Positions 27,440 to 56,480 of a stretch of 64,000 nucleotides of DNA are shown one piece after another. How positions within the stretch are numbered: position 1 is the first letter of the stretch; every line of letters begins with the position of its first letter. Source of the stretch: Blastocatellia bacterium (GTDB lineage Bacteria > Acidobacteriota > Blastocatellia > UBA7656); contig JBBWZK010000135.1 of assembly GCA_039648975.1 (NCBI GenBank), positions 753 to 64,752 on the forward strand, read 5' to 3'. A program made the translations under genes and the position numbers. The notes under the pieces are model-generated. The model worked only from the letters and a program-made list of their open reading frames with translations, was not told the origin of the DNA and did no database searches.

Positions 27440-27655
27440 CTATAGCGGTGTTCAAATCGGTTTAGCATGTAGGGGCGACCCTGCGGTGGCCGCCCCAGTG
27501 TAGGCCGGCGCAGTCTGGGGAGGCCACCGCAGGGCCTCCCCTACATGATGGCGGCTTAATCCAATTGATATCTGCTCTAGAGCGGTTTTCAATTGAATGT
27601 AGCGCAAGCTAACAGCTTGCGCTACATGGCAAACGCATTTGAAAATCGCTCTAAG
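27440..27655. repeat. composite palindromic element, copy A (TIR-like end + double GC-hairpin module 27466-27547 + GTAGCGCAAGC hairpin element 27577-27655)
   Basis: Read directly. Near-identical, in reverse complement, to 56198-56480. Starts 10 nt upstream of the GH51 ATG. Track ORF 27452..27889 is a translation artefact of this DNA. Confidence 0.85.
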
Positions 27656-27894
27656 CCGCACGAGATTAGCATACTCAAGCAGCTTAGAGTAGCTGTTGTT
27701 CTTGAATTCCTTACTGGCGCGAAACCACCGGCTAGAACGCCGGCAGTGCGATGTAGGAGAAGAAAAACGAACCGGAGCTGCCGAGTTCAGTGTGTGACTG
27801 AGTGAAGCCGACATAAGACGCGTCGATGGCTCCGGCGCAGGCGATTGAAGGTGGCGTGAAGAGGGCGTGCGGTTCTCTTCATTGACCATGGCCG

Positions 27895-29385
27895 TTATCT
27901 AACCAGCGTCACTTCAGTCAGGATCGCTTTGAAACTTTCCAAACCGGCTTCTAAATTTTCAATGATTTCCTCCGCCAATTCGTCGGGATTCGGCAGGTTG
28001 TCCAAATCGGCCAGCGATTTGTCTTTAATCCAGGTGATGTCCAGACTCGTCTTGTCACGGTTGATGATCTCTTCGTAAGTAAACTTCCGCCAGCGTCCGT
28101 CGGGGTTGCTTGCCGCATGATAGGTTTCGCTGCGTTTGTGGCGGTTGAGCGGTTGGTAACACTCGATGAACTCTTTCAAATCGCCTAGCCGCAAAGGATT
28201 CTTCTTCAGCGTGTGATGAATGTTGGTGCGGTAATCGTAGTACCAGACTTCTTTCGTCCATGGCGCTTTTGCGGCGGGCCTGGCGTCAAAGAAGATCACG
28301 TTTGCCTTAACGCCGTGAGCGTAAAAGATGCCCGTCGGCAATCGCAGAATCGTATGTAAATCTGCGGTTTCGAGCAATCGCTTGCGGACGGTTTCGCCGG
28401 CTCCGCCTTCAAACAAAACATTGTCCGGCACGACGACAGCCGCTTGCCCCGTCGTCTTGAGCATCGTCTTGATGTGCTGCACGAAGTTGAGTTGTTTGTT
28501 GCTGGTCGTCGCCCAGAAATCCTGCCGGTTATAAGTTAAGTCTTCCTTTTCCTGCTCGCCTTCTTGGTTGGTAAAAGTCTGGCTGCTCTTTTTACCGAAA
28601 GGCGGATTGGCCAGCACATAGTCGAAGCGCCTGCCATCGTCCGCCACCAGCGCATCGGTGGACGAGATGAAATTTTCGCTGTCAATGTCGCCGATGTTAT
28701 GCAGAAACAAATTCATCAAGGCCAGCCGCCGCGTCGAAGCGACGATTTCATTACCGAAAAAGGTTTTGTATTTGAGGAATTGCTTTTGCTCTTTGTCCAG
28801 CTTGGAATTGGCGACTAGAAAATCATAGACGCCGAGAAAGAAACCGCCCGTGCCGCAAGCCGGATCGGCGATGGTTTTTGCGGGTTCGGGCCGGATGCAT
28901 TCGACCATCGCGCGTATCAGGGCGCGCGGCGTGAAGTATTGGCCCGCGCCGCTTTTCGTGTCTTCGGCATTCTTTTCTAGTAGCCCTTCGTAAATCTGGC
29001 CTTTCACATCCGCGCCCATAATGCTCCACTGTTCTTTGTTGATCATGTCGATCAACTTGTAGAGCTTCGCCGGGTCTTGAATCTTGTTCTGGCTTTTGGT
29101 GAAGATTTGTCCGAGGGTGCCTTTCTGGTGGCCGAGTTCACGCAGCAGTGTCGTGTAATGGATTTCGAGTTGCGCGCCGCGTTTGGCGGTCAGGCTTTCC
29201 CAGTTGTATTCGGGCGGCACCGGCAAGGCGCGATTGTGCGGCGGTCGGCTGTATTCATCGGCCATCTTCAGAAACAACAGATAAGTGAGTTGTTCGAGAT
29301 AATCGCCGTAGCTGACGCCGTCGTCGCGCAGCGTATTGCAGAAGCTCCAGACTTTACTGACGATGCTGTTGGTGGTTGCGTCCAT
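27895..29385 (-). CDS. hsdM: type I restriction-modification system, DNA methyltransferase subunit
   Basis: Track ORF 27895..29643 is extended through REP DNA; the true start is ATG 29385 (MDATTNSIVSKVWSFCNTLRDDG). Motif I DPACGTGGFF, motif IV LANPPFG. Confidence 0.9.
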   Translation of the reverse strand: MDATTNSIVSKVWSFCNTLRDDGVSYGDYLEQLTYLLFLKMADEYSRPPHNRALPVPPEYNWESLTAKRGAQLEIHYTTLLRELGHQKGTLGQIFTKSQNKIQDPAKLYKLIDMINKEQWSIMGADVKGQIYEGLLEKNAEDTKSGAGQYFTPRALIRAMVECIRPEPAKTIADPACGTGGFFLGVYDFLVANSKLDKEQKQFLKYKTFFGNEIVASTRRLALMNLFLHNIGDIDSENFISSTDALVADDGRRFDYVLANPPFGKKSSQTFTNQEGEQEKEDLTYNRQDFWATTSNKQLNFVQHIKTMLKTTGQAAVVVPDNVLFEGGAGETVRKRLLETADLHTILRLPTGIFYAHGVKANVIFFDARPAAKAPWTKEVWYYDYRTNIHHTLKKNPLRLGDLKEFIECYQPLNRHKRSETYHAASNPDGRWRKFTYEEIINRDKTSLDITWIKDKSLADLDNLPNPDELAEEIIENLEAGLESFKAILTEVTLVR

Positions 29386-29410
29386 AGTTTTGTTGTTCTG
29401 CCTTTTTCGC

Positions 29411-29740
29411 GGCTTTGCCGCCCGATGGACGGCGATGGCTTTGAGGATTCGCTTTTTCGTGGCTCTGCCGCCTGATCTGCGGAAAGGCTCCGCCTTTCCG
29501 GGCCAGAGCCTCCATAACAGAGACTCCCCCTTACATCGGCGGCTCTGCCGCCTGATCTGCGGAACAGAACCTCCACGAACCGATGCCCGCGAACAAGTGA
29601 AAGCGAAAAGTAAGAAGCCTGATCTGCGGAACAGAACCTCCACGAACCCTCATTGGCGGCTCTGCCGCCTGATCTGCGGAAAGGCTCCGCCTTTCCGTGT
29701 AGAGCCTCCCCCCTTAACCCGCATTGGCGGCTGCGCCGCC
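29411..29740. repeat. cluster of 4-5 REP units (GGCGGCTCTGCCGCC-TGATCTG-CGGAAAGGCTCCGCCTTTCCG and variants)
   Basis: Read directly: full or partial units start near 29411, 29461, 29538, 29617 and 29655, plus GGCGGCTGCGCCGCC at 29726-29740. Each unit is two short GC hairpins. Spacing is irregular (about 40-80 nt). Confidence 0.85.
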
Positions 29741-30382
29741 GTTTATGCCCTGCGCCAATCGATTTTCTCTATATCAACCGCGAGCGGCTCATCTTCCAGT
29801 GCGCGGCGTTGCCAGATTCGCGCGCTTGAATATAAATAATCCGGCGCGCTTTCGACCAATCCGGCGCGCACCGGGTTGAGGTGAATATAATTGACTTTCT
29901 CCATAAACATCGCTTCGCTGAGAATCAGAAAGGCGTTTGAATGATGTTCCCACAAGGAGTATTGGTATTGCCGAGATTTCACTTCCTGCCGCAACTTTTC
30001 CAGCGAACTGGCATACGCTTTTTCTTTCAGGTAATCGATCACGCGCCGGGCCGCGATGCCATTGATAAACCGCAAAACCTCTTTCGGCAGGCGCGCGCCA
30101 TCGGTGATCAAATGAACATGGTCGGGCATGATGACATAGGCGAAAATCAGAATATTCGCCGACCGCCGCGCTTCATTGAAGGCATTGGCGACGATGGCCT
30201 TGATCTGGTTGGTCTGAAAAACCGGCAACCGATCTTTTGCCACACAGGTCAAATAATAGCAGGGCGCGTCTCTGGAAATTCTGACCATGTTGTTTGATCC
30301 TACGGCGGCGCAGCCGCCAACCTTAAAGAGCCCAGCTATCGGAAAGGCCGAGCCTTTCCGCACATCGGGCGGCAGAGCCGCC
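29655..30382 (-). mobile_element. REP-RAYT-REP unit (REP-associated tyrosine transposase flanked by inverted REPs)
   Basis: The left flank (29655-29740) and right flank (30304-30382) carry the same two hairpin motifs in opposite orientation. These are ggcggctgcgccgcc / ggcggcgcagccgcc and cggaaaggc(t/c)c(c/g)gcctttccg with ggcggctctgccgcc / ggcggcagagccgcc. This is the arrangement described for RAYT loci. Confidence 0.75.
29743..30288 (-). CDS. REP-associated tyrosine transposase (RAYT; IS200/IS605 TnpA-like HUH Y1 enzyme)
   Basis: Track ORF 29743..30363, trimmed to ATG 30288 (MVRISRDAPCYYL). HUH motif MPDHVHLI. Tyr motif YIHLNPVRAGLV. 181 aa. Confidence 0.85.
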   Translation of the reverse strand: MVRISRDAPCYYLTCVAKDRLPVFQTNQIKAIVANAFNEARRSANILIFAYVIMPDHVHLITDGARLPKEVLRFINGIAARRVIDYLKEKAYASSLEKLRQEVKSRQYQYSLWEHHSNAFLILSEAMFMEKVNYIHLNPVRAGLVESAPDYLYSSARIWQRRALEDEPLAVDIEKIDWRRA

Positions 30383-30404
30383 GAGTCAACCGCTGCCGCG
30401 CTTG

Positions 30405-31703
30405 TTAATCCGCGCTCTCGGGCGCGACCAGCTTGCCTTCAAACGCCTTTTTCAAGATGCTCTGCCGCAACGCTTCGGCCTGTCGCAAAGAGGCGGCGAT
30501 GGTTTCTTCGAGCTTATCGCAGACGCTCAGACGGCTTTCGATCTCCTGCACAATGCGTTGTTGTTCTCCGAGTAAGCAAAGAGGCAGTTCTAGTTTTGAG
30601 ATTTTGCCTAAACTTAAAGTATGCAATCCCGAAGTCGAGCTTGCTTGTTCCTTGATTTTATCTCTTCCAATTCTTGAACAAAAAAAATGCAAAGCATATG
30701 CAGGTGCTATTCGTTCTGATAGCCGAGCCTTTATCAAATGATTTTGATGAACGCAATTTTCAATAGCGCCATTCCAAATTGCCACACGGCCAATCTGCTC
30801 AATACTGCCATTACCTTCGACAAAAAGTAGATCATTCTTTTTAAGCTTTACTCGCTCTACTTCATTCGCATTCAAACCAATCGTATGAATATCAGTTAAA
30901 TTGAGTGAGTTGAAATAGACATTAGCCACTCTAAGAAAAGGCAATTTCAATTCAAGCTTTTCTCTTTTACTATTCTTTGTAAGTCCGCCTGAAACCTTTG
31001 CAACATCACTCAGTTTTACCCATGTCCAGCCGTTCGGCAACTCGCCGTCGGACACATTTTCATTCGTCAGCTTGCCTTCAAAAGCCCACTTCAACACGGC
31101 CTGGCGGTAGGTCTTTAATTGAGCTTGCGCGATTTTGAGGCTTGCCACACCTGCTTCCAATTCGCTGAAGAGTTCTTCGATCTTGGCGACAATGCGTTGT
31201 TGCTCGGCAAGCGGCGGAAGTGGGAATAGGATGGTTGCCAAATTTTTTCTAGATATTCTTTTTCTTGTCGTCCCGCTTTGAAGTTTTTCAATTTCATTTC
31301 TAAATACAGGGCAATTAATTGCATACATCAAGAACTTATTATTGACTGCGTTCAATCCAGTGCGAATGATAGCAACATCAACTGCCGTTACATATTTGTT
31401 TTCACCTTTCAGGGGGAAAATACAAGCCCTACCAATAGGGTCAGGCATACGAGCAACAAGGACATCACCTTCTTTTAGAAAAGTACAATTTAGTTCGTTG
31501 GCTCTTTGCAAAGTTAGAAATCTTGCGGATTTATTTTTGAAACTTCCATCGCCAATATCAGCCAATTGTATTAGTCGGACTTCGCCATTAGGATTTTGAT
31601 CCTTGGTTTCAATCCAATCTCCATCAACAAACATTCCATCACGGGAAATCAGTTTATCGATAGTCCCAACATCCCAATTTTTCGGTAATCCATTCAAGGC
31701 CAT
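30405..31703 (-). CDS. hsdS: type I restriction-modification system, specificity subunit
   Basis: Track ORF 30405..31793 is extended through a REP; the true start is ATG 31703 (MALNGLPKNWDV). There are two AT-rich target-recognition regions. They are separated and followed by conserved helical repeats: LPPLAEQQRIVAKIEELFSELE...AFEGKL and LPLCLLGEQQRIVQEIESRLSVCD...AFEGKL. Confidence 0.9.
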   Translation of the reverse strand: MALNGLPKNWDVGTIDKLISRDGMFVDGDWIETKDQNPNGEVRLIQLADIGDGSFKNKSARFLTLQRANELNCTFLKEGDVLVARMPDPIGRACIFPLKGENKYVTAVDVAIIRTGLNAVNNKFLMYAINCPVFRNEIEKLQSGTTRKRISRKNLATILFPLPPLAEQQRIVAKIEELFSELEAGVASLKIAQAQLKTYRQAVLKWAFEGKLTNENVSDGELPNGWTWVKLSDVAKVSGGLTKNSKREKLELKLPFLRVANVYFNSLNLTDIHTIGLNANEVERVKLKKNDLLFVEGNGSIEQIGRVAIWNGAIENCVHQNHLIKARLSERIAPAYALHFFCSRIGRDKIKEQASSTSGLHTLSLGKISKLELPLCLLGEQQRIVQEIESRLSVCDKLEETIAASLRQAEALRQSILKKAFEGKLVAPESAD

Positions 31704-31726
31704 AAATTTTAATCGATCCTCAAGCA

Positions 31727-31772
31727 ACCGGCGGCTCTGCCGCCTGATGTGCGGAAAGGCTCGGCCTTTCCG
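31727..31772. repeat. single REP unit (same family as 29411-29740) between hsdR stop and hsdS start
   Basis: ccggcggctctgccgcctgatgtgcggaaaggctcggcctttccgg, read directly. Confidence 0.85.
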
Positions 31773-31817
31773 GCAAGTGGATAATAAATTCATTGAGGCT
31801 GCGCCTCAATGTCTTAA

Positions 31818-35205: not shown

Positions 35206-35315
35206 CTTAGAGCGGTTTTTAATCGGATGTAGCGCAAGCGGTTAGCTTGCGCAGCGACTCGCGCAAGCTAACCGCCTTGCGCTACATGGCAAACGCATTT
35301 GAAAATCGCTCTAAG
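35206..35315. repeat. palindromic GTAGCGCAAGC-type element, two-hairpin copy
   Basis: cttagagcggtttttaatcggatGTAGCGCAAGCggttaGCTTGCGCagcgactcGCGCAAGCtaaccgccTTGCGCTACatggcaaacgcatttgaaaatcgctctaag. The ends are inverted repeats of each other. Confidence 0.85.
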
Positions 35316-37210: not shown

Positions 37211-37270
37211 AAAATGGCTTCAGAGCGCACACGTGCAGTTCCTGAAAATAAATCGAAAAGGAGAGCGACC

Positions 37271-37675
37271 ATGGCTAAAAAGATCATTGCTAAGTTGAGA
37301 GCAATAAATGCTCAGGTAGAATTGGAATTGGCCGAGGCGAAATTGGCCAATCTTGAAGATCCGACGATATCGACAGAGTCAGATCTTGCCAAAATCCTGT
37401 CCGACCTCGCTTTGCAGGCGATCCAGGGGGGCCGCGATTCTGCTGCCTGGAAAGCCTATATGCGTAAAATCGTCGGCACGGACAACCCTGACTCTCTGCA
37501 ATTCAAGCGGCTGACCTTTCAGGATGACCTGCGAGGTCAAGACTACGTAGTAAAAAGTAATGTCTACATCGTTGCTAACGCGGTTTGTGGCAGCAACACG
37601 CGGACCAATACCCTGGCAAACGTAGAGACCGAAGGTACAGACATTATCGACAAAGATCTGGCTGCGGAGGCCTGA
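37271..37675 (+). CDS. 134-aa hypothetical protein with helical N-terminal half ending in a double-glycine-leader-like motif
   Basis: Track ORF 37214..37675. ATG 37271 has AAGGAG 7-8 nt upstream; ATG 37214 (3 nt after the peroxidase stop) is the alternative. ...DLAKILSDLALQAIQGG at residues 38-54. Stop TGA 37673-37675 lies 1 nt before the next ATG. Confidence 0.6.
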   Translation: MAKKIIAKLRAINAQVELELAEAKLANLEDPTISTESDLAKILSDLALQAIQGGRDSAAWKAYMRKIVGTDNPDSLQFKRLTFQDDLRGQDYVVKSNVYIVANAVCGSNTRTNTLANVETEGTDIIDKDLAAEA

Positions 37676-37676
37676 G

Positions 37677-39128
37677 ATGAACCGGGAAGCAGGTGAAATT
37701 GAACGACCATCTGATGCTGCCCGCCGCGATGCGAATGCCATTGCGCAATCGCTATCGCGGTTGTGGCAGCGTCTTTGTAAAACTTATTTGCCTGTAGCGC
37801 CGGAAGATTCAATCTGGAGCTTCAGCCGCGCCATAAAGGCGAGCGACCCGGAGCAGGGCTGGAAGCTTCATGTTTCGGCAAACCTGCTGACGGCCTGCGA
37901 AGTCCTCGAACGGGTTGCCCCATTTCTACAGGCCCGCGAGGTTCTCTTTAAGGCCCCTTCGACATTGCAATGGCTCAGTCAACTCAACTGCGGCCTTGAT
38001 CGGGAGTATAGCCAGGTCGGGAAGTTCATTACCGTCTATCCTGGCAGTGACGAAGAGGCGGTTTTTCTGGCGCGGCGGTTGCACAAAATGACTCTTGGCC
38101 GATCCGCTCCCGCCGTGCCGTTTGATCTGAAGTTCCGGCCCGATAGCTCTGTTTATTATCGCTATGGGGGCTTCAAGGCATTGGAAATCATTAACCCTGA
38201 CGGCACCCGCACGCCGGCCATCCGAAATCAGAATGGCGAGCTGATCTCGGACTTATGCAAAGACGGAGCTGCGAGGCCCGTCTGGATATCTGATCCTTTT
38301 ATTAATCAACAGACGCGACGCAAACCAAAGATGATTGAGAATCCGTTCAGCACCAATCTTCTGGTGCTTCGCGCCTTGAGCCAGAGGGGAAAAGGAGGCG
38401 TCTACCAGGGCATTGATCTGAGCGATTCGAAGCCGCGCCTTTGCATCATAAAAGAAGGGCGTCATGGTGGCGAGATAGGCTGGGATGGCCGCGACGGCAA
38501 CTGGAGAGTACGAAATGAAGAATGGGTACTGCGGAGCTTGCGAGTTGCGGGCCTCAACGTTCCGCGTACTTACTCTTCCTTTGAACTCGAACGCAATTAC
38601 TATCTGGTGACAGAATTCATTGAGGGCGACACGCTCCAGAGGCGGCTGAACAAGAGAAAGCGGCGGTTGAGCATCACTCAAGCGCTGCGCTATGGCCATG
38701 AGATTGCGCGCCTTATATCCAAGATCCACGCCGCCGGTTGGGCATGGCGCGATTGTAAGCCGGCCAATCTGCTGGTGACGACGAAAGGCGAATTAAGGCC
38801 GGTCGATTTTGAAGGGGCTTGTCCCTTGGATAAGCCGGATCCTTTGCCCTGGAATACGCCGGAATTCTCTCCTCCGGAATGGCAAGATGCGTGTGCGCCG
38901 CAATCGAGAATAGCTGAAGATATTTATGCGGTCGGGGCGGTCATGCATTATTTATTAACCGGCAGATGGCTTGATGCTTCAAGCCGTGTACGACTATCTG
39001 AATTGCGCCCAAACGTACCTGCTTTCGTGTGCGCACTGGTCTCCGACATGGTGGCTAGCGACCCTCAGCAAAGACCCAGCGCCAGGTGCTTGACAGACAA
39101 ATTCAAAGCAGCTTTATCGTTGGCCTAG
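37677..39128 (+). CDS. LanKC/LanL-like phosphoSer/Thr-lyase domain + Ser/Thr kinase domain, no cyclase domain
   Basis: 483 aa, GGAGG 8 nt upstream. N-terminal blocks QGWKLHVSA, FKAPSTL, QVGKFITVYP, VYYRYGGF, ISDPF resemble my memory of the RamC/LabKC N-termini. Kinase motifs GKGGVYQG, CIIKEG, WRDCKPANLLV, VDFEGA, FSPPEW. The protein ends about 60 aa after the kinase core. Confidence 0.65.
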   Translation: MNREAGEIERPSDAARRDANAIAQSLSRLWQRLCKTYLPVAPEDSIWSFSRAIKASDPEQGWKLHVSANLLTACEVLERVAPFLQAREVLFKAPSTLQWLSQLNCGLDREYSQVGKFITVYPGSDEEAVFLARRLHKMTLGRSAPAVPFDLKFRPDSSVYYRYGGFKALEIINPDGTRTPAIRNQNGELISDLCKDGAARPVWISDPFINQQTRRKPKMIENPFSTNLLVLRALSQRGKGGVYQGIDLSDSKPRLCIIKEGRHGGEIGWDGRDGNWRVRNEEWVLRSLRVAGLNVPRTYSSFELERNYYLVTEFIEGDTLQRRLNKRKRRLSITQALRYGHEIARLISKIHAAGWAWRDCKPANLLVTTKGELRPVDFEGACPLDKPDPLPWNTPEFSPPEWQDACAPQSRIAEDIYAVGAVMHYLLTGRWLDASSRVRLSELRPNVPAFVCALVSDMVASDPQQRPSARCLTDKFKAALSLA

Positions 39129-39202
39129 CCGAACCCCCATTCTCTACAGCCAGCTATCCGGGCAGGCTCAAGTCTGTCCATGTGTTGGATGTCGCCATCG
39201 TC

Positions 39203-41674
39203 TCATGACGAAAGTTTAGCGCATTTAACCAGCTCGATAATTCCAGGGTCTGTGCGAATGGAGTCTAGAAACGGCTCCATCATCAAGAAGGGGAAGGTTG
39301 CAAATTTATCGCTGCAAGCTTGCTGTAATAATGCATACGCTCGCTCTTTTTCGCCAAGCCCGATGTAAATAAGCGCCTTTTCCTGAGGCGGTATATCAGG
39401 TTCCTTTGATAGTTTATCAAGGATTTCCAGCGCCTCGCTTTTTCTTCCGGCCCTTCCATAAGCAAAGCCCAGCGGGGCAGCGCCGTAGAAGTTATCTGCG
39501 GCGTAGAGCTTTTGAAACACCTTTATAGAGTCTTGCAACATCCCTTTTTGCAGGTAGGCCAACCCCAGTACGTTCAGCGTCGCAAGGTGATCGGGATTTC
39601 TTTCAAGATTCATCCGGCAGTATTCGATAGCTTTGTCATAGTGTCGCGAGTAGTAGTAGGCAAGCCCCACATTCATGATTGAGGGCGGGGCAAACGGCTC
39701 AAGGTCCCAGGCGATTTCGCTTTCCCTTATCGCTTCATCCTCCCGCCCTTTCAGCCCCAGGAGGCGGGAATACCAGAAATGTGCCGGGGAGTATTCAGGG
39801 TTTAGCTCAATCGCCCGCTTAAACTCTTTTTCAGCCGCTTGCCAATCCCATTCGTACTTTAATAGGTAAACCGCCTTAGAGGTATGCGCTTCTGCAAGCG
39901 TGTCATCAATCTCTATAGCCTTATTCGCAGCCCATTTCGCATTATTCATGGCCTCTCTGGTGGATATTGGACGACCAAAAGTAACCGCGCTCAACAAGAC
40001 GTAGGAATCCGCCAGCCCGGCGTAGGCCTTGGCGTAGTACGGATCCAGCTTGACCGCCCGGTCAAAGAAATTGATGGCTTTCTTAATATTCTCTTTGTTT
40101 CTATCGTTCCAATAATACCGTCCGTAGAAATACATTCTGCAAGCTTCCTCATTTTCGGTGGGGCGGGCAAATAAAAGCCGCTTTTCGTCTTCGCTGAGCG
40201 AGAGATGTAATTTAGAGGCCAGTTTATAAGCAAGGTCAGATTGAAGACTTAGCAATTCGCCGGGCGCGATGATGTACTTATCCTCCCAAATCGGCAACCC
40301 GTCCGCCGAATCGACCAGCTTGACTTCAAGCGCAAGGGCTTCATTCTCTGTTGTCAGCGTTCCAAAAAGCACCGCCTGGACGTTGAAATCACTCAGTATC
40401 CGCCGCTGCGCCTCCTGATCATCCTCGTAAGCCGGGATCACGGTCGGCGCTTTAACCTTCAGCTTTGACAGACTGGAAAGCCGGTTGGTGATCCCCTCGG
40501 TCAGCCCTTTGCTCAGAATTTCAGCGTTCGCATCCTTGCTTTTGTTGACTATCGGAAGCACCGCGAGCGTCTGAATCCTTGATGGTTTTAAATAAACCAT
40601 CAAGATGGCGAGGACGAGCAGCAAAAGCAGAACGGCGGCAACATAGTTGCGGATCTGATAGCGGGCTGGCCGCCTCGGGCTGAGTCGGGCCACTTCTGGG
40701 GGATTGTCGAGGTCCAGGAGAAGCTCACTCGCGGATTGGTATCGTAGCTCTCTATCTCTCTGCAAGCACTTCTGAACGATGGAGGTCAGCCCCGGCTGAA
40801 TATGGGTTGAACAACTGATCATTTCGTAAAGGACAATCCCGAAGCTGAAGATGTCACTACGATAGTCCAGCCTCTCGGACCTCAGTTGCTCCGGGGACAT
40901 ATAAGCTATGGTGCCGACCACCAATCCCAATTTGGCGCTTTCACTTTCAGCCATGTTGAGCGCATCCGGTTTTTGCTGAACGTGTTTTGCCAGCCCGAAA
41001 TCGAGAACCTTCACCTGCCCGGTGGCCGTCACCATGATGTTTTGCGGCTTTATGTCACGGTGGATGATGCCATGAGAGTGGGCTTCGATGAGGGCGCTGA
41101 CGATCTGAATAGCTAAGTGAGAAATCTTTTCAGATGGGAACGTCCCATTGCGTATCAGCGAGGCCAGCGTTTCGCCTTCGATATACTGCATCACGATGAA
41201 GTTATATCCGTCGTGTTCTTCAAAATCATGCACGACGCAGATGTTCGGGTGATCCAGTCGCCCTATGGCCTGGGCCTCTTTCTTCAGTTGTCTTTTGGCC
41301 CATGCATCATCGGTAAATGGGTGAGAGAGAAATTTTAGAGCAACTTTGCGGTCGAGCCGGTCATCTTGCGCAAGATAAACTTCCCCCATGCCGCCCCGGC
41401 CCAACAACACCTGAATCTGATATGAGCCGATCTGTTTTCCGACCAGCGACTCTTTTTCCGGCTCCTCGGCCAGCACCTTCATTCCGAGGCTGAAGGCAGG
41501 CCGTTCCATGAACTCTCGTTTATTCTCGAAGGCGGCGATTAAGGACTCAACCTCCCTGCGCAGCGATGCATCATCCACGCAAACCTTGGCCAGATACACG
41601 GCTCTCTCTTCGGCGCTAAGGCCCATCGCTTCATGGAACAGGACTTCGGTGCGCTGCCAGTTCTTAGGCTTCAT
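39203..41674 (-). CDS. membrane-spanning Ser/Thr protein kinase with TolB-N-like and TPR sensor region
   Basis: 823 aa. GRGGMGEVYLA, VALKF, HRDIKPQNIMV, DFGLA, YMSPEQ. TM segment YVAAVLLLLLVLAILMVYL. LAVLPIVNKSKDANAEILSKGLTEGI module followed by multiple TPR-like repeats. Start overlaps the sigma-factor stop by 11 nt. Confidence 0.85.
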   Translation of the reverse strand: MKPKNWQRTEVLFHEAMGLSAEERAVYLAKVCVDDASLRREVESLIAAFENKREFMERPAFSLGMKVLAEEPEKESLVGKQIGSYQIQVLLGRGGMGEVYLAQDDRLDRKVALKFLSHPFTDDAWAKRQLKKEAQAIGRLDHPNICVVHDFEEHDGYNFIVMQYIEGETLASLIRNGTFPSEKISHLAIQIVSALIEAHSHGIIHRDIKPQNIMVTATGQVKVLDFGLAKHVQQKPDALNMAESESAKLGLVVGTIAYMSPEQLRSERLDYRSDIFSFGIVLYEMISCSTHIQPGLTSIVQKCLQRDRELRYQSASELLLDLDNPPEVARLSPRRPARYQIRNYVAAVLLLLLVLAILMVYLKPSRIQTLAVLPIVNKSKDANAEILSKGLTEGITNRLSSLSKLKVKAPTVIPAYEDDQEAQRRILSDFNVQAVLFGTLTTENEALALEVKLVDSADGLPIWEDKYIIAPGELLSLQSDLAYKLASKLHLSLSEDEKRLLFARPTENEEACRMYFYGRYYWNDRNKENIKKAINFFDRAVKLDPYYAKAYAGLADSYVLLSAVTFGRPISTREAMNNAKWAANKAIEIDDTLAEAHTSKAVYLLKYEWDWQAAEKEFKRAIELNPEYSPAHFWYSRLLGLKGREDEAIRESEIAWDLEPFAPPSIMNVGLAYYYSRHYDKAIEYCRMNLERNPDHLATLNVLGLAYLQKGMLQDSIKVFQKLYAADNFYGAAPLGFAYGRAGRKSEALEILDKLSKEPDIPPQEKALIYIGLGEKERAYALLQQACSDKFATFPFLMMEPFLDSIRTDPGIIELVKCAKLSS

Positions 41675-42227
41675 TGGTCAACTCGCGCGCAAGCCACGCT
41701 TTGGCTAAGTTCCAATCGCGCATAACTGTGACGGGAGAGACCTTCAGCACCTCTGCGGTCTCCTCGACGCTGAGGCCGCCAAAAAAACGCAACTCGACGA
41801 CCTGACTCTTTCGCTCGTCTATCGAGGCCAGTCGGTTCAACGCTTCATCAAGAGCGATCAACTCGGCGGATCGCTCGGTTGATATAATGGCTTCCGAGAG
41901 CGATACGTGGATTGCGCCGCCACCGCGCTTGATGCGGTTCTGGTCTCGCGCATAATTGAGTAGAATGCGGCGCATGATCCGCGCCGAAATGGCGATAAAG
42001 TGCGCCCGATTTTGCCAGCGCACCCGGGTCTGGTCCATCAGCCGGACAAACGCCTCGTTGACCAGGGCCGTAGTCTGTAACATGTGGCCGGGATACTCAT
42101 GATGCATATATTGGTGTGCCAGACGATGAAGCTCTTTTTCGACTAAAGGGATCAGCCGCTCCAAGGCATTCTGATCTCCATTGCACCATGCGATGAGTAG
42201 ACCTGTAACTTCTGTGGAAGAGTGCAT
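41664..42227 (-). CDS. ECF-type RNA polymerase sigma factor (kinase-associated subgroup)
   Basis: Track ORF 41664..42263 starts at TTG; ATG 42227 (MHSSTEVTGLLIAWCNGDQNALERLIPLV) is the alternative I list. Region 2 ALVNEAFVRL; region 4 LSVEETAEVLKVSPVTVMRDWNLAKAWL. Start is uncertain. Confidence 0.8.
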   Translation of the reverse strand: MHSSTEVTGLLIAWCNGDQNALERLIPLVEKELHRLAHQYMHHEYPGHMLQTTALVNEAFVRLMDQTRVRWQNRAHFIAISARIMRRILLNYARDQNRIKRGGGAIHVSLSEAIISTERSAELIALDEALNRLASIDERKSQVVELRFFGGLSVEETAEVLKVSPVTVMRDWNLAKAWLARELTNEA

Positions 42228-42509
42228 AGCGTTTGAATCTGCGGCGTAACCTTCTCCTATCAAGAAAGCCTCACTACAACAAGACTGTTCTTAAATCAGA
42301 AGATAGTTTTTGACCCGATCTGGTGCGTTATGTCATGAAGGCGAAAATTGAGTCGCGTGAGTCTCAACCGGTCGTCTTCTGTTTTTAAGCTTAGGGCACC
42401 AGTGCAGTAGGTTATATATCGATTCTTACTGATATTGCAATCTCTTTTTTGGGATACCAGGCCATTTATGAAAGCTAAATTTACCGCTGATTCGGGCAGG
42501 AAAACTGTA

Positions 42510-42947
42510 ATGGCAAACACGATTAGAAGCTGGATGATGGTGGCTCTGGCCACAGTCGTTGCGCTCCTTTATGGCGGCGCGGTGCTGGGCATCGTCAAGC
42601 CGCAGGCCGACGAGAGAATGATTGAACGCATTGAGCCGATTATTTTTGTGATCATCGGATATTACTTTGGCAGGCTGCCTGCCCAGCAGAATGAAAACAC
42701 ATTGCGAGAAGAGATCAACCGTCAAGCTCAAAAGGCCGATGCGGCGCAGCATACTAAGGAGCAGGCGCAGCAGGCCAGAGAGTCGTTTGAAGAGAAGATG
42801 AAAAGCGTCAGGACGGTGTTGATGGCTTCGGTGTTGGGGCTTGAGAAAAAGCGGCAGACCGATAATCACGATAAGCCGGGCGGGCCGGTCTATGACGATT
42901 CTGTGCGCCAGTCAATGGCTGCTGCCATAAACATTCTGAACTCGTAA
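42510..42947 (+). CDS. hypothetical membrane-anchored coiled-coil protein
   Basis: Track ORF 42435..42947; starts at 42468 or 42510 are both possible. Two hydrophobic segments (WMMVALATVVALLYGGAVLGIV, IIFVIIGYYFG), then a charged helical stretch QQNENTLREEINRQAQKADAAQHTKEQAQQARESFEEKMK. Confidence 0.5.
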   Translation: MANTIRSWMMVALATVVALLYGGAVLGIVKPQADERMIERIEPIIFVIIGYYFGRLPAQQNENTLREEINRQAQKADAAQHTKEQAQQARESFEEKMKSVRTVLMASVLGLEKKRQTDNHDKPGGPVYDDSVRQSMAAAINILNS

Positions 42948-50415: not shown

Positions 50416-50578
50416 TTAGATCGGCTTGCGATGGGATGTAGGGCAAGCGGTGCAATATGGAGTGCGGTGACTGGTCACCGCTGTGCAGCATTCGATTGCA
50501 ACAAAGCGGCGACCAGTCTCAGCACTCCAAAACAGGCCGCTTCTCCTATGCCCTACACCGATCTGAAATCCGATCTAA
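50416..50578. repeat. nested-palindrome REP-like element (ATGTAGGGCA ... TGCCCTACAC with internal GGAGTGC-N-GCACTCC arms)
   Basis: Read directly. Outer arms ttagatcgg / ccgatctaa. Then atgtagggca (50436) / tgccctacac (50549-50558). Inner arms ggagtgcggtgactggtcaccgct / agcggcgaccagtctcagcactcc. Track ORF 50457..50831 (MECGDWSPLCS...SGDQSQHSK) is its translation artefact. Confidence 0.75.
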
Positions 50579-50601
50579 ATCCACTCATGACATGCGCCGG
50601 T

Positions 50602-51831
50602 TTATAGATAGCTCAACCACCAATCCCGGCGGCGACGCTTCAATTCGGCAAACCAACGGCAAAGCGGATAGAGCAACAAGAGGCCCACTAACCAGAACAC
50701 ATACACCACCCATAACGAAAAGCCCAGATTGCCTGGGTTGGGGCGTGGCTGATCCATTGGCCCGACGAATAGCCAGCCAGTCGGCTGCCCCGCAAGGTAA
50801 CCAACCAGCACGGCCAGCCCGTGTGCCGTGAGCCACTGCCCCACATAAAAAATCAGCGGCACGCGCCCGAACGTAATCAAGACGCTTGAGAGAGTTCCTT
50901 CTCTCTCCCGCTCAACCCAAGAAAGGACAAGCATCGCCGGGCCCAGGGTCATCAGCAAGAATAACAACGAGGGCGGATATTTCGAGACGTTGAGAAAGGA
51001 AAGCACAGTGAACCACCCATTCTCTTGCACGCTCCAGCGGCTCGGATCGCCGTATACGTTCAAGCCTCGCAGCACAACGAAACCGAGTAACAAGCCCGCG
51101 CCCAGTCTGAATAGCATGCGCCGTCGTCGTGCTGCTTCCCATTGATAAAATGCGCCGAAGCAGTAGCCCGCCGCTAACACGCCAACCCAGGGAATCAACG
51201 GATAAAGCAGAAGTCCATACACGTTGGCCGTCAATAAGACCATGCCCTGCTGATGCAATAACATCCAAAACGCATCCGAGACGCCCGACAGCGAGTTGAC
51301 CGAAACCGTAAACGACTGAACCCTGATATGGTCGAGCAGGTTATGCAGCGCGATCATGGCGATACTGCCCACGGCAATGACGCGCAGCGGCAGGTAAATC
51401 AAGCCCGCGAGCAAGATCATCGAAACGCCAATGACCCAGATGACCTGCAACATGAAGGCGAAGTGAAAGTCGAGATTGAACCAGACGATGACGCGAAGGA
51501 CGGTAAGTTCTAGCAGAATTAACCAAAGCCCGCGCGTGATGAGAAACCTCGATAACTCGGCTTTGCTCTTGCAGCGGGCCGCCCGCAGGAACGCGCCAGT
51601 ACCTGCGAGAAAGACAAAGACCGGCGCACAAAAATGAGTCACCCAGCGCGTGAAGAAGAGTAGCGTGTGGGTTTTCGTGAGATCAGTAGGATCGAAATTT
51701 AGCGCCTCGCGATGAAAGTATTCGCGTGTGTGATCGAGCATCATAACGACCATCACAGCCCCGCGCAGCAGATCAATAGCATTGACGCGCCCCCTTCGTT
51801 CGCTCAGATCATTTTGCAGAGCACTTTGCAT
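50602..51831 (-). CDS. DUF1624 / heparan-alpha-glucosaminide N-acetyltransferase-like membrane acyltransferase
   Basis: 409 aa. N-terminal [25 protein letters not shown], about 10 hydrophobic segments. Confidence 0.75.
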
Positions 51832-52171: not shown

Positions 52172-52327
52172 ATGACCGAAATCACCTCCAGACAAGAGCG
52201 CGCCATGCTTGCCAGGCTCACCCTGCCGACTATCAAAGGTGCGGCGGCACAGGCGAACGTCACCGAGCAGACGCTACACCGCTGGCTCAAAGAGGAGGAG
52301 TTGTCTGTCTTGATGGCGCAGAATTGA
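52172..52327 (+). CDS. possible 51-aa helix-turn-helix ORF (below ORF-track cutoff); may be a transposase/terminase-type HTH remnant
   Basis: Hand translation: MTEITSRQERAMLARLTLPTIKGAAAQANVTEQTLHRWLKEEELSVLMAQN. The GAAAQANVTEQTLHRWLK segment looks like an HTH. No clear SD. Ends 20 nt before a REP. Confidence 0.25.
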   Translation: MTEITSRQERAMLARLTLPTIKGAAAQANVTEQTLHRWLKEEELSVLMAQN

Positions 52328-52347
52328 CTTTTGAGCGTTCGGACGTT

Positions 52348-52455
52348 CTAGAGCGATTTTCAAATGCGTTTGCCATGTAGCGCAAGCGGTTAGCTTGCGC
52401 AGTATCGGGCGCAAGCTAACCGCTTGCGCTACATTCAATTGAAAACCGCTCTAAG
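52348..52455. repeat. palindromic GTAGCGCAAGC-type element, two-hairpin copy (opposite orientation to 35206-35315)
   Basis: ctagagcgattttcaaatgcgtttgccatGTAGCGCAAGCggttaGCTTGCGCagtatcggGCGCAAGCtaaccGCTTGCGCTACattcaattgaaaaccgctctaag. Confidence 0.85.
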
Positions 52456-52535
52456 CCTCGACTGACCGCATGAATTGCTTCCTACAGTCTAAGCAGCGCG
52501 TAAGGTGAGGGGTTACCAAGGAACTGCCTGATTAT

Positions 52536-54056
52536 TCATCTGCAAGCGCAAGAGTTATTCGTGATGTTTCTGTCGGTGATGCTGAACATCCGCCCCTGCG
52601 ATAAGAGTTGGATGGAAGCCGTCGCTCGCTTAGCCGAAGTATCAAGGCTCGCCATCACTCTTCTATCCGCCGCGTTGTGCTGAAGGGTGATCTGGCTGCC
52701 GCGCTTCGTAAGTGTGCCGATGCCACCTATAGTCAACCCTGCACAGTTGGTGAATTGGTAATCACCCGTGGTGCTGTTGATCTGTAGGAGGTTGCCGTTG
52801 CTTTCGTCCTGGATGCATAGGTCGAACGGAGGGGGGGCTTCATAGGCACCCATATCCACAACGGCTATCCCATCATGATTTCCATCCTGGATTCGCGGCT
52901 TGCCTTCCAAATCTAGCGATGGAAGATTCGGAGCTGAATTATCACCGGTGTCAATACTTGGAGACGTTAGTTTGAGATGGTAATCGCCCGCTGCTGCATT
53001 GACGAATAGAGGATCAGCCGAAATGTTGCCGTTTATGCCTGTCAAGTTGGGGCAACCTCCACCATATGCGCTCCCGCCCGAGCTATAGATATTATTATTC
53101 ATCAGCATTAACCCGCTGTTGTCGCCGAATCCCATATAGGCAGCATCTTGTCCAGCCTTCGCCACTATTAGATTGTTGACCCATTTATTTTGCGTATTGA
53201 AGGCTCCATTCACACCAGAGCCTTGCTGGCTGTCATTATCGGCAATTGTATTGTTGATGACATCTCCAACATACCCATAAATACCACCGCCAGCTTGCGC
53301 ACTATTGCGTGCAATTAGGTTTTGAATGATGGAGAAGGGGTATCCCGTGCCGAAGATACCTCCACCATAATAAAAAGCGGTGTTCTCTTGGATTCGATTA
53401 TTGCGTATAGCAAGCCGTTCAGCTAGATAAACGTAAAGCCCGCCGCCAAAGTCTGCGGTGTTACGCGAAATGACATTATCAACAACCTCGACATCAGAAC
53501 TGAACGAAACAATTATTCCACCACCGGATGTGCCGCTGAACTCGGTGCGATTGTTCGTTATCACATTTCCCTGGATAAGGGCCGAACTGGCTATCATCCC
53601 AATTCCGCCACCGGTCGCCATACCGATATTGTTGGTTATGATGTTGTTTCTAACTGTCGCAGAGGAACGCTCAATATGCACTCCTCCACCTGAGTAACCG
53701 AAGTCAAATGTTGCTCTTCCATTTCGGATTGTAAAACCGCTGAGGATAGACGAGCGGCTCTCTCCAGATCGAAAGGTAACCACCGAGCCAGCGTGGTTGC
53801 CATCAATGATGGTTATCCCAGGCCCACTTTCCGAAGACACTGTGATGGCCTTCCCCAGAAAGTTGATATTCTCCAAATAGGTTCCTGGCGACACAAGCAC
53901 CGTATCGCCATTCACGGATGCATTAATGGCCTGCTGAATCGTTGGATAATCTGTCGGAACTCTTCTGATGGCGGCACTCGCGTCCACGATGCCCAGGGCG
54001 CAGAAAGCAAGCATGAACAAGAAGACAATGAATCGGCTCGGCAAGGAAATCCTCAT
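52536..54056 (-). CDS. secreted right-handed parallel beta-helix repeat protein
   Basis: 506 aa with a signal peptide (MRISLPSRFIVFLFMLAFCALGIVDASA). Then VPTDYPTIQQAINASVNGDTVLVSPGTYLENINFLGKAITV and many NN.I..N....GGGI-type coils. Confidence 0.75.
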   Translation of the reverse strand: MRISLPSRFIVFLFMLAFCALGIVDASAAIRRVPTDYPTIQQAINASVNGDTVLVSPGTYLENINFLGKAITVSSESGPGITIIDGNHAGSVVTFRSGESRSSILSGFTIRNGRATFDFGYSGGGVHIERSSATVRNNIITNNIGMATGGGIGMIASSALIQGNVITNNRTEFSGTSGGGIIVSFSSDVEVVDNVISRNTADFGGGLYVYLAERLAIRNNRIQENTAFYYGGGIFGTGYPFSIIQNLIARNSAQAGGGIYGYVGDVINNTIADNDSQQGSGVNGAFNTQNKWVNNLIVAKAGQDAAYMGFGDNSGLMLMNNNIYSSGGSAYGGGCPNLTGINGNISADPLFVNAAAGDYHLKLTSPSIDTGDNSAPNLPSLDLEGKPRIQDGNHDGIAVVDMGAYEAPPPFDLCIQDESNGNLLQINSTTGDYQFTNCAGLTIGGIGTLTKRGSQITLQHNAADRRVMASLDTSAKRATASIQLLSQGRMFSITDRNITNNSCACR

Positions 54057-54402
54057 AAGATAACTCCTTAACCATTATGGGTAAATTGCGGTCTTACGCA
54101 TGGAACGTATCTCATACTGCATCGACTATCTGTGGATCATTGACAGCCATCACAGCTCGACGTGACAGCGGACACAGTATAGAAATCATCTGAAAAGAGC
54201 AAGCCCTTGCTAGGGCGTCGGAATCCCCTCTCTATTCCCTCTGGAACATCTTGTCGTCATTCGGTGTCCAAAGCATTAGCACACTTTGAGTCTTTTGAGC
54301 GCCCGCCGATTCGTTATGTCTACTTGCTGAATTGGAATCACGCCGGCTTTTTGCGCGATTCCCAAGAGAGCGCCTTATACCATAGTCAGGAGGATATGAC
54401 TC

Positions 54403-55182
54403 ATGTCAATACCCATCGCTCTTTATCTGGCTTCTAGCCAGGCCGCTTTGCTTATCGCTCAAGCCTCAGTCGGGCCGGATGGCCCAGCCGCCGGTGAGAA
54501 CTTGTCACTGCTCGAAATGCTTCACCGGATGCAGTGGCCAGCCAGAATGGTCGCGATCATTCTAGCCATTATGAGTATCTACTCGATCAGCGTGATGATC
54601 GAGCGATGGCTTACATTTAATGCTGCACGGAACCAGTCAAGGCAGTTTATACCTAAAGCCGCGGCGGCGCTCCGCGATCAGGAAATAAACAACGCCCTAA
54701 CGGTTTCTGAACAACATAAGAAATCCCACCTGGCAATTGTCATCAACGCCGGCTTGCAAGAATATCTTTTACAACAAGAAGTAGACAATCCTGGCGAGCT
54801 TACTGAAGCACTACACGAGGCACTGGATCGCGCCAGGGCACTGAAGATGGCTGAACTGAGTCGGGGGTTATCTGGACTTGCGACGATTGGCTCAACCGCT
54901 CCATTCGTGGGACTGTTGGGCACAGTCATTGGAATCATCAATGCTTTTCAAGGGATGAGAGTGGCTGAAGGAACCGGTATTGGTGCAGTCGCAGGAGGAA
55001 TTTCCGAAGCCCTCATTGAGACAGGATTTGGTCTGATCGTCGCGATTCCTGCGGTTTGGACGTTCAACCATTTCAATCATCGCCTTGAATCATTCAGAGT
55101 TGAAATGAATAACTCATCATCTGAATTGCTGGCCTATCTGAAGAAGCATTGGAGAAACAGAGCAAAAAGCGCCAGTGAGTAG
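54403..55182 (+). CDS. MotA/TolQ/ExbB-family proton-channel protein (no ExbD/TolR/MotB partner adjacent)
   Basis: 259 aa, three TM segments. LATIGSTAPFVGLLGTVIGIINAF and ISEALIETGFGLIVAIPAV are family signatures. Confidence 0.8.
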   Translation: MSIPIALYLASSQAALLIAQASVGPDGPAAGENLSLLEMLHRMQWPARMVAIILAIMSIYSISVMIERWLTFNAARNQSRQFIPKAAAALRDQEINNALTVSEQHKKSHLAIVINAGLQEYLLQQEVDNPGELTEALHEALDRARALKMAELSRGLSGLATIGSTAPFVGLLGTVIGIINAFQGMRVAEGTGIGAVAGGISEALIETGFGLIVAIPAVWTFNHFNHRLESFRVEMNNSSSELLAYLKKHWRNRAKSASE

Positions 55183-55423
55183 AAATATAGGCAAATGAAA
55201 TCAACAAAGCCGCCGTTAAAGTGAAAAGAATTGCTTGCTTTGTCATTACTCAAGTCCTGCGCACTGTCTGACGCAGGTGGGCCGAACGCTTCCGTTCAGG
55301 AAGCGGGCGACCGGTCTCGCAAGTAATCAATCGAAGCGCGCTGCGGCGGCTCCGGTGAAATGTAGAGTCAGGTTCAGCCGTGGCTTAATATTAAGCGGTG
55401 GAGATGAAAGAAGCTGAAGCTGC

Positions 55424-55600
55424 TTATCGAGTGGTAAGCCGATCTATGACTCCTTTGGCAATTTCAAGTGCGGTTTCTCTTTTTGAGTACAACATGGGCG
55501 GTCTATAACCGAGTATTCTAGGAATCTGGTATTTCCACCCTTTGCCAGTTTTCGTAAGCTGAATTTCGTGTCCCTTGTAATCTTCTTTGTAATCTACCAT
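55424..55600 (-). CDS. possible 58-aa ORF (hand-found), second gene of a small AT-rich pair
   Basis: MVDYKEDYKGHEIQLTKTGKGWKYQIPRILGYRPPMLYSKRETALEIAKGVIDRLTTR. Its ATG lies 12 nt after the stop of the upstream small ORF. Below the ORF-track size cutoff. No family recognised. Confidence 0.3.
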   Translation of the reverse strand: MVDYKEDYKGHEIQLTKTGKGWKYQIPRILGYRPPMLYSKRETALEIAKGVIDRLTTR

Positions 55601-55612
55601 AACTACTTTCGA

Positions 55613-55777
55613 CTAAGTTCCCCCGCCAGTTACCAAAACACGCACCTTATGTTCAGGATATTTTTTAAGATGATCATTCACTTCTTGTTTGGACTGGGCC
55701 TGTTCCTGACACCTCTTCCCGTTCCACTTGCAGGTTTGGCAAAGCGCGAGCCATTCTTTCTTCACTTCCTTTTTCAT
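55613..55777 (-). CDS. possible 54-aa Lys/Cys-containing ORF (hand-found), first gene of a small pair
   Basis: MKKEVKKEWLALCQTCKWNGKRCQEQAQSKQEVNDHLKKYPEHKVRVLVTGGGT. Strong SD AAGGAG 5 nt upstream of the ATG. CxxCx6C. Confidence 0.35.
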   Translation of the reverse strand: MKKEVKKEWLALCQTCKWNGKRCQEQAQSKQEVNDHLKKYPEHKVRVLVTGGGT

Positions 55778-56197
55778 TTATCTCCTTTAGGAGAATAATT
55801 GTAACACACTGATAGCCTCCGAAGCTCTCCTATAAGCAGAAGAAAAGGTCAGACTGCGAATCAAGCGCTCTTTCAAATTTCTCTTGGCTTCCTCTTCTAC
55901 ACCTCTCTTCTTGTAGTATGCTGCTCTGCGTCAGGCTGTTTTTCGTTTGTTCTACGAACGCCTGGCAGTCGGGCATGCCGCAGCCTCTGCACGAGAAATG
56001 CCATAGCCACCTGACTTCCTCGAACAGAGAGAGTTAGTGGACAGGCTTTCACTACATGACCCGAAAATATGTCTGATGGTATCTCGGATTGAAGTCAATC
56101 GAGGGATTGAACTCCACGTGGACGTTTTGAAAGTCCACATCAGGGTCAGTTTGGAATTCGTGTTTTCTTCTTACAAAACAACCCAGGTCAGGGATAT

Positions 56198-56480
56198 TAT
56201 AGCGATTTTCAAATGCGTTTGCCATGTAGCGCAAGCTGTTAGCTTGCGCAGCGACTCGCGCAAGCTGTTAGCTTGCGCAGCGACTCGCGCAAGCTGTTAG
56301 CTTGCGCTACATCCGATATTCAAAGCACGGCTGACAGAACACTAGAGCAGATTTCAATTGGATTAAGCCACAATCATGTAGGGGAGGCCCTCTGTGGCCT
56401 CCCCAGACTGCGCCGGCGGACTCTGGGGCGACCACAGAGGGTCGCCCCTACATGCTAAACCGATTTGAAAACCGCTATAG
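56198..56480. repeat. composite palindromic element, copy B (inverted relative to copy A; hairpin core triplicated)
   Basis: The reverse complement aligns end to end with 27440-27655. Differences are compensatory substitutions in the GC hairpins (56375-56454), a ~15-nt divergent stretch next to the first hairpin arm, and three tandem GCGCAAGCTGTTAGCTTGCGC(AGCGACTC) units at 56229-56307 instead of one. Confidence 0.85.

Follow-up and report, generated by a model that had tools for sequence, protein, structure and literature searches.

Inverted border repeats of a low-GC region in a Blastocatellia genome as probable clusters of IS630-type miniature elements carrying REP hairpins

The DNA studied here is a stretch of 64,000 nucleotides from a Blastocatellia bacterium (contig JBBWZK010000135.1), hereafter the window, and the elements in question are two inverted repeats, A (27440-27655) and B (56198-56480), which bracket an AT-rich segment of it. 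A sequence-only reading had regarded them as two copies of one composite palindromic element, which might mark the edges of an acquired island or serve for inversion of the whole segment. The present analysis indicates that the border composites are very probably two-unit clusters of non-autonomous transposable elements of the miniature inverted-repeat type (MITEs) of the IS630 family, which arose independently and neither delivered nor delimit the region between them. Each unit consists of a TA, a terminus of ~26 nt, one to three GTAG-tagged hairpins of the repetitive extragenic palindromic (REP) type, an inverted terminus of ~26 nt, and a TA. The units would be mobilised in trans by the DDE transposase of an IS630 element, and new copies would tend to land exactly beside resident ones. 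A and B would be separate products of this process, in two intergenic spacers that bound a MITE-rich, low-GC mosaic region.

Structure and genomic distribution of the border units

The inverted relationship of A and B was confirmed at these coordinates, and the two are mutual reverse complements. Their mean column identity in a MAFFT alignment was 81%. The repeat search of the window gave inverted arms of 43-55 nt with a complementarity of 82-98%, and the longest exact runs common to the arms of A and B were 49 and 32 nt. The claim of a single composite element was not borne out, as each of A and B is made of two neighbouring units, X and Y. Furthermore, the two are not built alike: the units of A share one TA, and those of B are separated by a motif of 25 nt.

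In copy A, unit X (27441-27579, plus strand) reads as TA, a terminus like the right inverted repeat (IRR) of IS630 (TAGCGGTGTTCAAATCGGTTTAGC), a REP doublet forming hairpins (REPIN), a terminus like the left inverted repeat (IRL), and TA. The general layout of X is a TA, a 24-nt terminus, two GTAG-tagged GC hairpins making up the REPIN, a second terminus and a TA. Unit Y of the S class (27578-27653, plus strand) abuts X copy A, contains a single GTAGCGCAAGC hairpin, and has termini of the same kind as those of X; the TA common to both reads CTGCTC-TA-GAGCGG. The DNA fold energy of this Y was -29.5 kcal/mol (z = -10). In copy B, the Y-type unit (56198-56342 including the 25-nt motif, minus strand) has an intact outer IRR-like terminus and carries, at about 56198-56317, three tandem GCGCAAGC hairpins with a period of 29 nt; its inner terminus is replaced by the 25-nt motif GTGTTCTGTCAGCCGTGCTTTGAAT at 56318-56342. 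It is followed by the inverted X copy B (56343-56479, minus strand), which has the CTCTGT/ACAGAG loop alleles. The single-strand folding of the units was far better than that of shuffled sequences (z = -6 to -13). The GTGTTCTGTCAGCCGTGCTTTGAAT motif was also observed at C140:190-214 and at C397 (two inverted copies ~60 nt apart), and it adjoins MITE ends elsewhere in the genome; possibly it represents one end of a further, very small MITE.

The hairpin substitutions between A and B had been described as partly compensatory. Across the family, they proved to be two alternative loop alleles per hairpin that combine freely. The X loops are CTGCGG or CTCTG in one hairpin and CCGCAG or ACAGAG in the other, and 10 matched and 8 mismatched combinations were counted, which means that no pairing between the arms is enforced. 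In the alignment of X copies from the whole genome, a third allele type, GGGGCGGGC, was also present in the second stem. The combination of the hairpin alleles in all ways suggests recombination or conversion among the copies or with free REPs.

The family was surveyed in the draft genome, which comprises 6.9 Mb in 486 contigs with a GC content of 57.7% and a completeness of 85%. A 15-nt core of the terminus, with up to three mismatches allowed, gave 515 matches, compared with 142 in the reversed-genome control. At least 95 clean paired elements were obtained, in size classes of ~76, 105 and 138 nt, and the related repeat loci numbered ~350; these genome-wide counts are lower bounds because many copies lie at contig ends. 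The units are small (76-160 nt), non-coding and multicopy, and several interiors that are unrelated in sequence carry the identical terminus type. According to the sequence-only reading, occurrence of the composite at hundreds of unrelated intergenic sites would speak against island borders, and dispersal through the genome is essentially what was seen in this census.

There were 27 full-length copies of X, with identities of 88-98%. In an alignment of 24 X copies, the identity between X copy A and X copy B was 91.4%. X copy A was 96-98% identical to the copies at C7, C325, C17 and C24 (96.4% in the 24-copy alignment), and the closest copy to X copy B was that at C476 (95.7%). The two X units of the window ranked only 15th and 11th in each other's list of 24, copy A being 11th for copy B. 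Since A and B are not closest relatives and their X-Y junctions differ, the two clusters arose separately.

Copy A had been placed 10 nt from the start codon of the neighbouring GH51 gene. This distance holds for the ATG at 27430. It does not hold for an in-frame ATG at 27421, which lies 19 nt from copy A and may be the true start of GH51. Creation of a promoter by copy A was also considered, but its sequence showed no sigma-70-like site.

IS630 termini, target sites and the REPIN cargo

A search for pairs of termini 0.45-4 kb apart led to C126:7511-8526, an insertion sequence (IS) of 1016 bp with the terminal inverted repeats (TIRs) TATAGCGGTTTTCAATTGCATTTAGCC and GGCTAAACTGATTTGAAAACCGCTATA. 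It contains two open reading frames (ORFs), which overlap at the A8 run CGAAAAAAAAGTC and matched NCBIfam transpos_IS630 (121.5 bits, cut-off 100) as well as Pfam DDE_3 and HTH_Tnp_IS630. The outer end of X agreed with the right end of this IS at 25 of the 26 compared bases in the consensus copies and at 24 of 26 in copy A. Moreover, both ends of the C126 element have counterparts in the termini of X and Y, with one IRL-like and one IRR-like end per unit.

The duplication of TA upon insertion was seen in five comparisons of filled and empty sites. A separate blastn-short search for empty sites in the genome yielded only 5 loci that were informative, most of them showing gaps of 2 nt, and was replaced by the analysis of insertions into another repeat family. 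In the first of the five comparisons, at C365, the terminus of an X unit harbours an M unit (TCAATTGGcT-TA-M-TA-AGCCGCAATC, compared with TCAATTGGAT-TA-AGCCGCAATC in intact X). In addition, four units of different subfamilies lie in one TA of another repeat, ACATTGCGCTCC-TA-ACGGAGCTT, and removal of the unit together with one TA restores the consensus of that repeat. This second family is itself abundant, with 496 strand matches of ACATTGCGCTCC followed by TAACGGAGCTT, and it is a recurrent target of MITEs, always at the identical TA. Examples were found at C114:4, C136:7319, C335:4062 and C424:681, and a member is present in the window at 5391-5471.

Of 83 insertions, 81 were in Y-TA-R, compared with ~11 expected from the NTAN frequencies of the genome. 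The sites were divided among CTAA (32), CTAG (20), TTAG (18) and TTAA (11). After insertion, each end has the sequence ...GCTC-TA-R and thus provides a Y-TA-R site once more. At 8 loci (C3, C7, C17, C53, C154, C226, C421 and copy A), two MITEs lie end to end with exactly one TA in common. As inserted ends recreate the target, X+Y pairs can form repeatedly and independently. A tendency of new copies to land beside resident ones would explain why such pairs formed more than once.

The duplication of TA is a mark of the IS630/Tc1-mariner group, and a CTAG-centred target preference is also a property of this group. With the agreement of the termini, we infer with good support that the DDE transposase of the C126 element would mobilise the units in trans. 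The same two arguments, namely IS-like termini and TA duplication, were used to link the RUP element to IS630-Spn1 (PMC2229807).

The interiors of the units have a different character. They show a GTAG tag followed by an imperfect palindrome, represented by the GTAGCGCAAGC and GTAGGGGCGACC/GTAGGGGAGGCC hairpins, and inverted doublets occur in the M and X units. Such hairpins belong to the usual GTAG REP and REPIN types that were catalogued previously (PMC3733652). In this genome, the GTAGCGCAAGC hairpin was found 103 times framed by IS630 termini and 108 times unframed, and the GTAGGGGCGACC hairpin 48 times framed and 98 times unframed. The GCGCAAGC hairpin was found unframed in other Blastocatellia metagenome-assembled genomes (MAGs), and it was matched exactly, over 24 specified bases, in MAGs bearing the labels Anaerolineae, Bellilinea and Planctomycetota. 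The hairpin ATGTAGCGCAAGCnnTTAGCTTGCGC was likewise observed, with no IS630 frames, in MAGs assigned to other phyla, and two of its Anaerolineae copies are at orthologous sites. The hairpins of other phyla could reflect horizontal spread of the REP system and its REP-associated tyrosine transposase (RAYT), or binning contamination.

These interiors allow another explanation. In it, a RAYT, which is an HUH tyrosine transposase, would move the units as large REPINs, and the frames would be part of the REPIN instead of IS630 termini. It is in agreement with the typical GTAG-tagged hairpin doublets of the interiors, with about half of the hairpin occurrences in this genome being unframed, and with the unframed hairpins in relatives and in MAGs labelled as other phyla. 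A RAYT gene is also located inside the segment (29743-30363, minus strand), between hsdM and hsdS, and was identified by NCBIfam NF047646 with 91.4 bits (cut-off 80). However, the TA duplication and the Y-TA-R preference are hallmarks of the IS630/Tc1 group, and transposition of the IS200/IS605 type makes no target duplication. Moreover, the frames match an IS630 element, and unrelated interiors are found within identical frames. The RAYT gene itself is flanked by a different repeat, the inverted double hairpin GGCGGCTCTGCCGCC..CGGAAAGGCnnGCCTTTCCG at 29456-29697, 30340-30383 and 31728-31772, which is confined to the restriction-modification (R-M) locus and unrelated to the abundant GTAG REPs in the MITEs. 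Movement of the units as large REPINs by a RAYT is therefore very improbable. This RAYT gene was single-copy in the assembly by tblastn; another RAYT could be missing because the assembly is 85% complete. Its flanks resemble those of the TIR-flanked tyrosine transposases ('TIRYT') reported for Acidobacteria (PMC3733652).

The origin of the framed REPINs was considered by comparison with related genomes. Full-length X, with frames and REPIN, was found in this genome only; G003, G008 and G018 have the interior REPIN alone and unframed. The junction of the X frame and REPIN had no exact match in the JGI metagenome collection. Framed two-hairpin (M) units are also present in the congeners G004 and G001, with shorter matches in G003. 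The most likely course is that, in this lineage, a REPIN was taken up between IS630 termini and was amplified afterwards. The GGGGCGACC-type REPIN occurs free in related genomes and within IS630 frames in this genome only, and its 27 full-length framed copies at 88-98% identity suggest that it was captured recently and that a burst ensued. The GCGCAAGC-type REPIN in like frames suggests at least one further capture. Whether the units are true chimeras, in which a REPIN as substrate of an HUH/RAYT enzyme is enclosed in IS630 termini as substrate of a DDE enzyme, is an evenly balanced question, and framed REPINs are possibly mobile by either enzyme. No description of REPIN-carrying IS630 MITEs was found in the searchable literature, although absence there is not proof of novelty; such frames appear to be an undescribed chimera, with one type specific to this genome.

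Composition, gene content and history of the enclosed region

The DNA between the two border clusters (27656-56197) was delimited as a low-GC, mosaic, variable region on the basis of Pfam content, GC and the GC content of third codon positions (GC3), and conservation in congeners. The segment had been described as AT-richer than its flanks, and the windowed GC analysis agreed with this: its GC of 0.5176 was the lowest among 305 windows of 29 kb, which had a mean of 0.569 (sd 0.018) and were sampled from contigs of at least 29 kb only. All 16 genes at 27.9-55.2 kb, from hsdM to ExbB, ranked no higher in GC3 than the 28th percentile among 2713 long ORFs of the genome, compared with the 46th-54th percentile for the flanking GH51, CE15-SGNH esterase and giant genes.

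The gene content named in the sequence-only reading was upheld by Pfam and NCBIfam. The region contains a type I R-M locus, with the RAYT gene between hsdM and hsdS, and a haem peroxidase together with a RamC_N-kinase. An envelope gene set likewise belongs to the content. Also present are a serine/threonine kinase with tetratricopeptide repeats (STK-TPR) and an extracytoplasmic function (ECF) sigma factor, an outer membrane protein (OMP), and a protein of 1125 aa. Further genes encode a fusion of trypsin and phospholipase D (PLD), an HGSNAT-like acyltransferase, a beta-helix protein and ExbB.

Three more MITE units are located within the segment. The M-class unit at 35208-35313 (plus strand), in the spacer between hsdR and the peroxidase gene, has two hairpins forming a complete REPIN and ~150 matches in the genome. 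A unit of a third subfamily (50417-50577, no strand assigned) is ~160 nt long, has TAGATCGG-type termini and GGAGTGCGGTGAC hairpins, and directly adjoins the 3' end of the conserved HGSNAT-like gene; its subfamily has more than 30 copies in the genome with identities of 88-98%. The M-class unit at 52349-52453 (plus strand) also has two hairpins and gave a fold energy of -47.3 kcal/mol (z = -12.9). Beyond 27.4-56.5 kb, the window has one dispersed repeat, the one at 5391-5471, which is of the other family.

The comparison with congeners was performed at the nucleotide and amino-acid levels. The left flank (7-27 kb) had matches in congeners at 65-83% nucleotide identity, mostly 71-83%. Five genes at 37.2-42.9 kb occur in identical order in G004:C64, with 36-76% amino-acid identity. 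The HGSNAT-like gene (50.6-51.8 kb) and the stretch at 55.4-55.8 kb were present in four of four congeners, at 74-78% and 75-78% nucleotide identity, respectively, and the genes conserved in all four showed 75-78% identity, as in core genes. ExbB had 81% nucleotide identity in G004. No nucleotide match in the four congeners was obtained for the R-M locus, the peroxidase, the OMP, the 1125-aa gene or the trypsin-PLD gene, nor for most of the giant gene in the right flank. The segment combines conserved with variable genes as a mosaic and is not one unit. On the left side, GH51 orthologues were found in G003, G002, G014 and G005 at 77-84% amino-acid identity, and in the 40-60 kb around these orthologues no neighbour was common with the window on either side. 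Regarding further records, the exact GH51 protein had none in the database with either of its alternative starts, ExbB was found solely on a 1.5-kb Logan contig, and the metagenome scan returned nothing for the GH51 5' junction.

These results bear on the idea of an acquired island or MITE-bounded composite transposon, in which a transposase would have moved the 29 kb between the outward X ends into one TA. In its favour, both outer ends are IRR-like termini, each followed by TA, the interior stands out in composition, and for a large part of it there is no nucleotide match in the congeners. However, TA flanks accompany every insertion and are thus uninformative about whether the whole unit moved. 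The X units are no sisters of each other, and the inner structure of B is unlike that of A. Some interior genes are conserved in all four congeners, a five-gene block is located elsewhere in G004, no second copy of any interior stretch was found in the genome, and no empty site was found in the relatives. Moreover, the border repeats are inverted and not direct, no tRNA was detected in the window, Rfam gave no match, and no integrase, invertase or recombinase family was recognised among the 20 scanned ORFs, which lie in the segment or next to it. Delivery of the segment as such a transposon is thus highly unlikely. The proposal that the repeats are the edges of one acquired island, or have a special role, is not sustained, given the dispersed family, the lack of sister relationship between A and B, the mosaic interior and the absence of integrase, tRNA and site-specific recombinase. 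Its other half stands, in that the DNA between the repeats differs in composition and for much of it the four congeners gave no nucleotide match. The compositional anomaly is real but is not explained by the repeats.

Another reading would make the inverted composites the substrates of recurrent homologous inversion of the whole segment, with two isomers in the population. The arms offer the exact runs of 49 and 32 nt, the gene order in the genus is heavily rearranged, and the MITE at 50417-50577 adjoins one break in gene order relative to congeners. However, no contig with the alternative junctions was present in the assembly, the homology is short and interrupted, more than 100 similar copies would be equally good partners, and no invertase gene was among the annotated ORFs. 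Such recurrent inversion has very little probability. The pair A/B, like any dispersed repeats, could occasionally support RecA-dependent inversion, and nothing singles out this pair.

A rearrangement of another extent is visible in the window. In G001:C234 and G004:C4, the orthologue of the gene at 5517-7736 has the HGSNAT orthologue 1.75 kb upstream of it. In the window, the HGSNAT-like gene (50602-51831) and the gene at 5517-7736 are 43 kb apart and in opposite orientation. Dispersed repeats adjoin both gene-order breakpoints, at 5391-5471 and at 50417-50577. This fits an inversion or translocation of ~45 kb with breakpoints beside dispersed repeats. It suggests repeat-associated rearrangement in the lineage, with coordinates and repeat families different from those previously proposed.

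Several observations weigh against reading the border composites as independent MITE clusters mobilised by an IS630 element. Only one IS630 copy was found in the assembly, its frame is split at the A8 run, and transposition itself was not observed. The split of the C126 transposase frame could reflect either programmed frameshifting or an inactivating slip or defect. With 5-6 loci, compared with a mean of 1.14, the MITE density of the region was the highest among the sampled 29-kb windows, and all dispersed MITE units of the window are within 27.4-56.5 kb. The only two X units of the window sit exactly in the two spacers where GC3 shifts, and each border X has a Y on its inner side, in mirror orientation. 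Given five MITE loci in the region, this X+Y arrangement would be rather improbable by chance (rough estimate ~0.05). A preference of MITEs for low GC was considered and rejected, the GC being 0.580 around MITE loci and 0.576 at random sites (p = 0.17). As the MITEs have no low-GC bias genome-wide, their association with the region is unexplained beyond 'permissive intergenic DNA'. Five of the six spacers longer than 350 bp in the segment contain a MITE unit. The simplest reading of the MITE density is that the region is one of long permissive spacers.

Some further features of the region and its surroundings were observed. The hsdS gene (30405-31793) had a GC of 0.43 and a GC3 of 0.40, at percentile 0 of the 2713 long ORFs, compared with a GC3 of 0.67 for hsdM and hsdR, which suggests a recently swapped specificity subunit. 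Its internal repeats (D14 and D16) are spaced 639 nt apart, reflecting the two target-recognition halves. The five-gene block of window positions 37211-42944 corresponds to 147-153 kb of G004:C64 and consists of a small ORF, the RamC_N-kinase, STK-TPR, the ECF sigma factor and a small ORF. The haem peroxidase upstream of this block had no tblastn match in the 60 kb of G004:C64 examined, and it may be a later addition to the RamC_N-kinase/STK/ECF cassette. In the left flank, an inverted pair of tandem arrays of the GGGGCTA heptamer (I17) is located at 9077-9168, with 9 related matches in the genome.

Relation to known elements and significance

The units were compared with known miniature elements. 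RUP is a MITE of ~107 bp present in ~100 copies, with termini like those of an IS630-family element of the same genome, and it inserts at TA, often into other repeats or insertion sequences (PMC2229807). The units described here are similar in their IS630-like termini, TA insertion, copy number of ~100 and landing in other repeats. However, RUP has no GTAG REP hairpins, whereas units here enclose a complete REPIN; the termini of RUP are 9 bp compared with ~26 nt here, and several interiors occur per terminus pair in the present family.

The Correia elements (NEMIS) of Neisseria have a terminal TA with duplication, terminal repeats of ~24-26 bp and length variants of internal segments, and are often located just upstream of genes (PMC2229807). 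They have also been listed as IS630-derived (PMC2817692). The present units resemble them in the duplicated TA at both ends, the long terminal repeats, the length variants and the near-gene positions. In contrast, Correia elements contain a site for integration host factor (IHF), and roles as promoters and with RNase III are known for them; copy A is without a sigma-70-like promoter, and Correia elements carry no REP cargo.

REPs and REPINs have a GTAG tag and an imperfect palindrome, and are commonly arranged in inverted doublets (PMC3116915, PMC3733652). The hairpins here agree with them in the GTAG tag with a GC stem of 7-9 bp, the inverted doublets, the short spacer, the hundreds of copies and the existence of free copies. 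The present case differs in that about half of the copies are inside IS630 termini with TA duplications and that the sole RAYT found does not have these REPs as its flanks.

Integron mobilisation units consist of a near-identical MITE pair with a target duplication around the whole unit. The likeness is that two MITE copies bracket accessory genes. However, the copies here are 91% identical and not sisters, and their TA flanks are uninformative.

For annotation, the result means that long inverted repeats bounding an odd region are no evidence of an island if they come from a dispersed MITE family. The deciding tests for such border repeats are a census of the family, the ranking of sister copies, and the comparison of filled and empty sites. 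Furthermore, these MITEs break the assembly at many contig ends, which is relevant to the quality of MAGs in soil Acidobacteriota. The lineage provides a clean natural example of an IS630-type MITE family whose Y-TA-R target is well defined, and of self-propagating tandem insertion, in which the inserted end recreates the target. Moreover, REPINs, which are normally assigned to RAYT transposases, are here riding within DDE-transposon termini. The question of which enzyme moves REP sequences would therefore be testable in this lineage, with two candidate enzymes and natural substrates.

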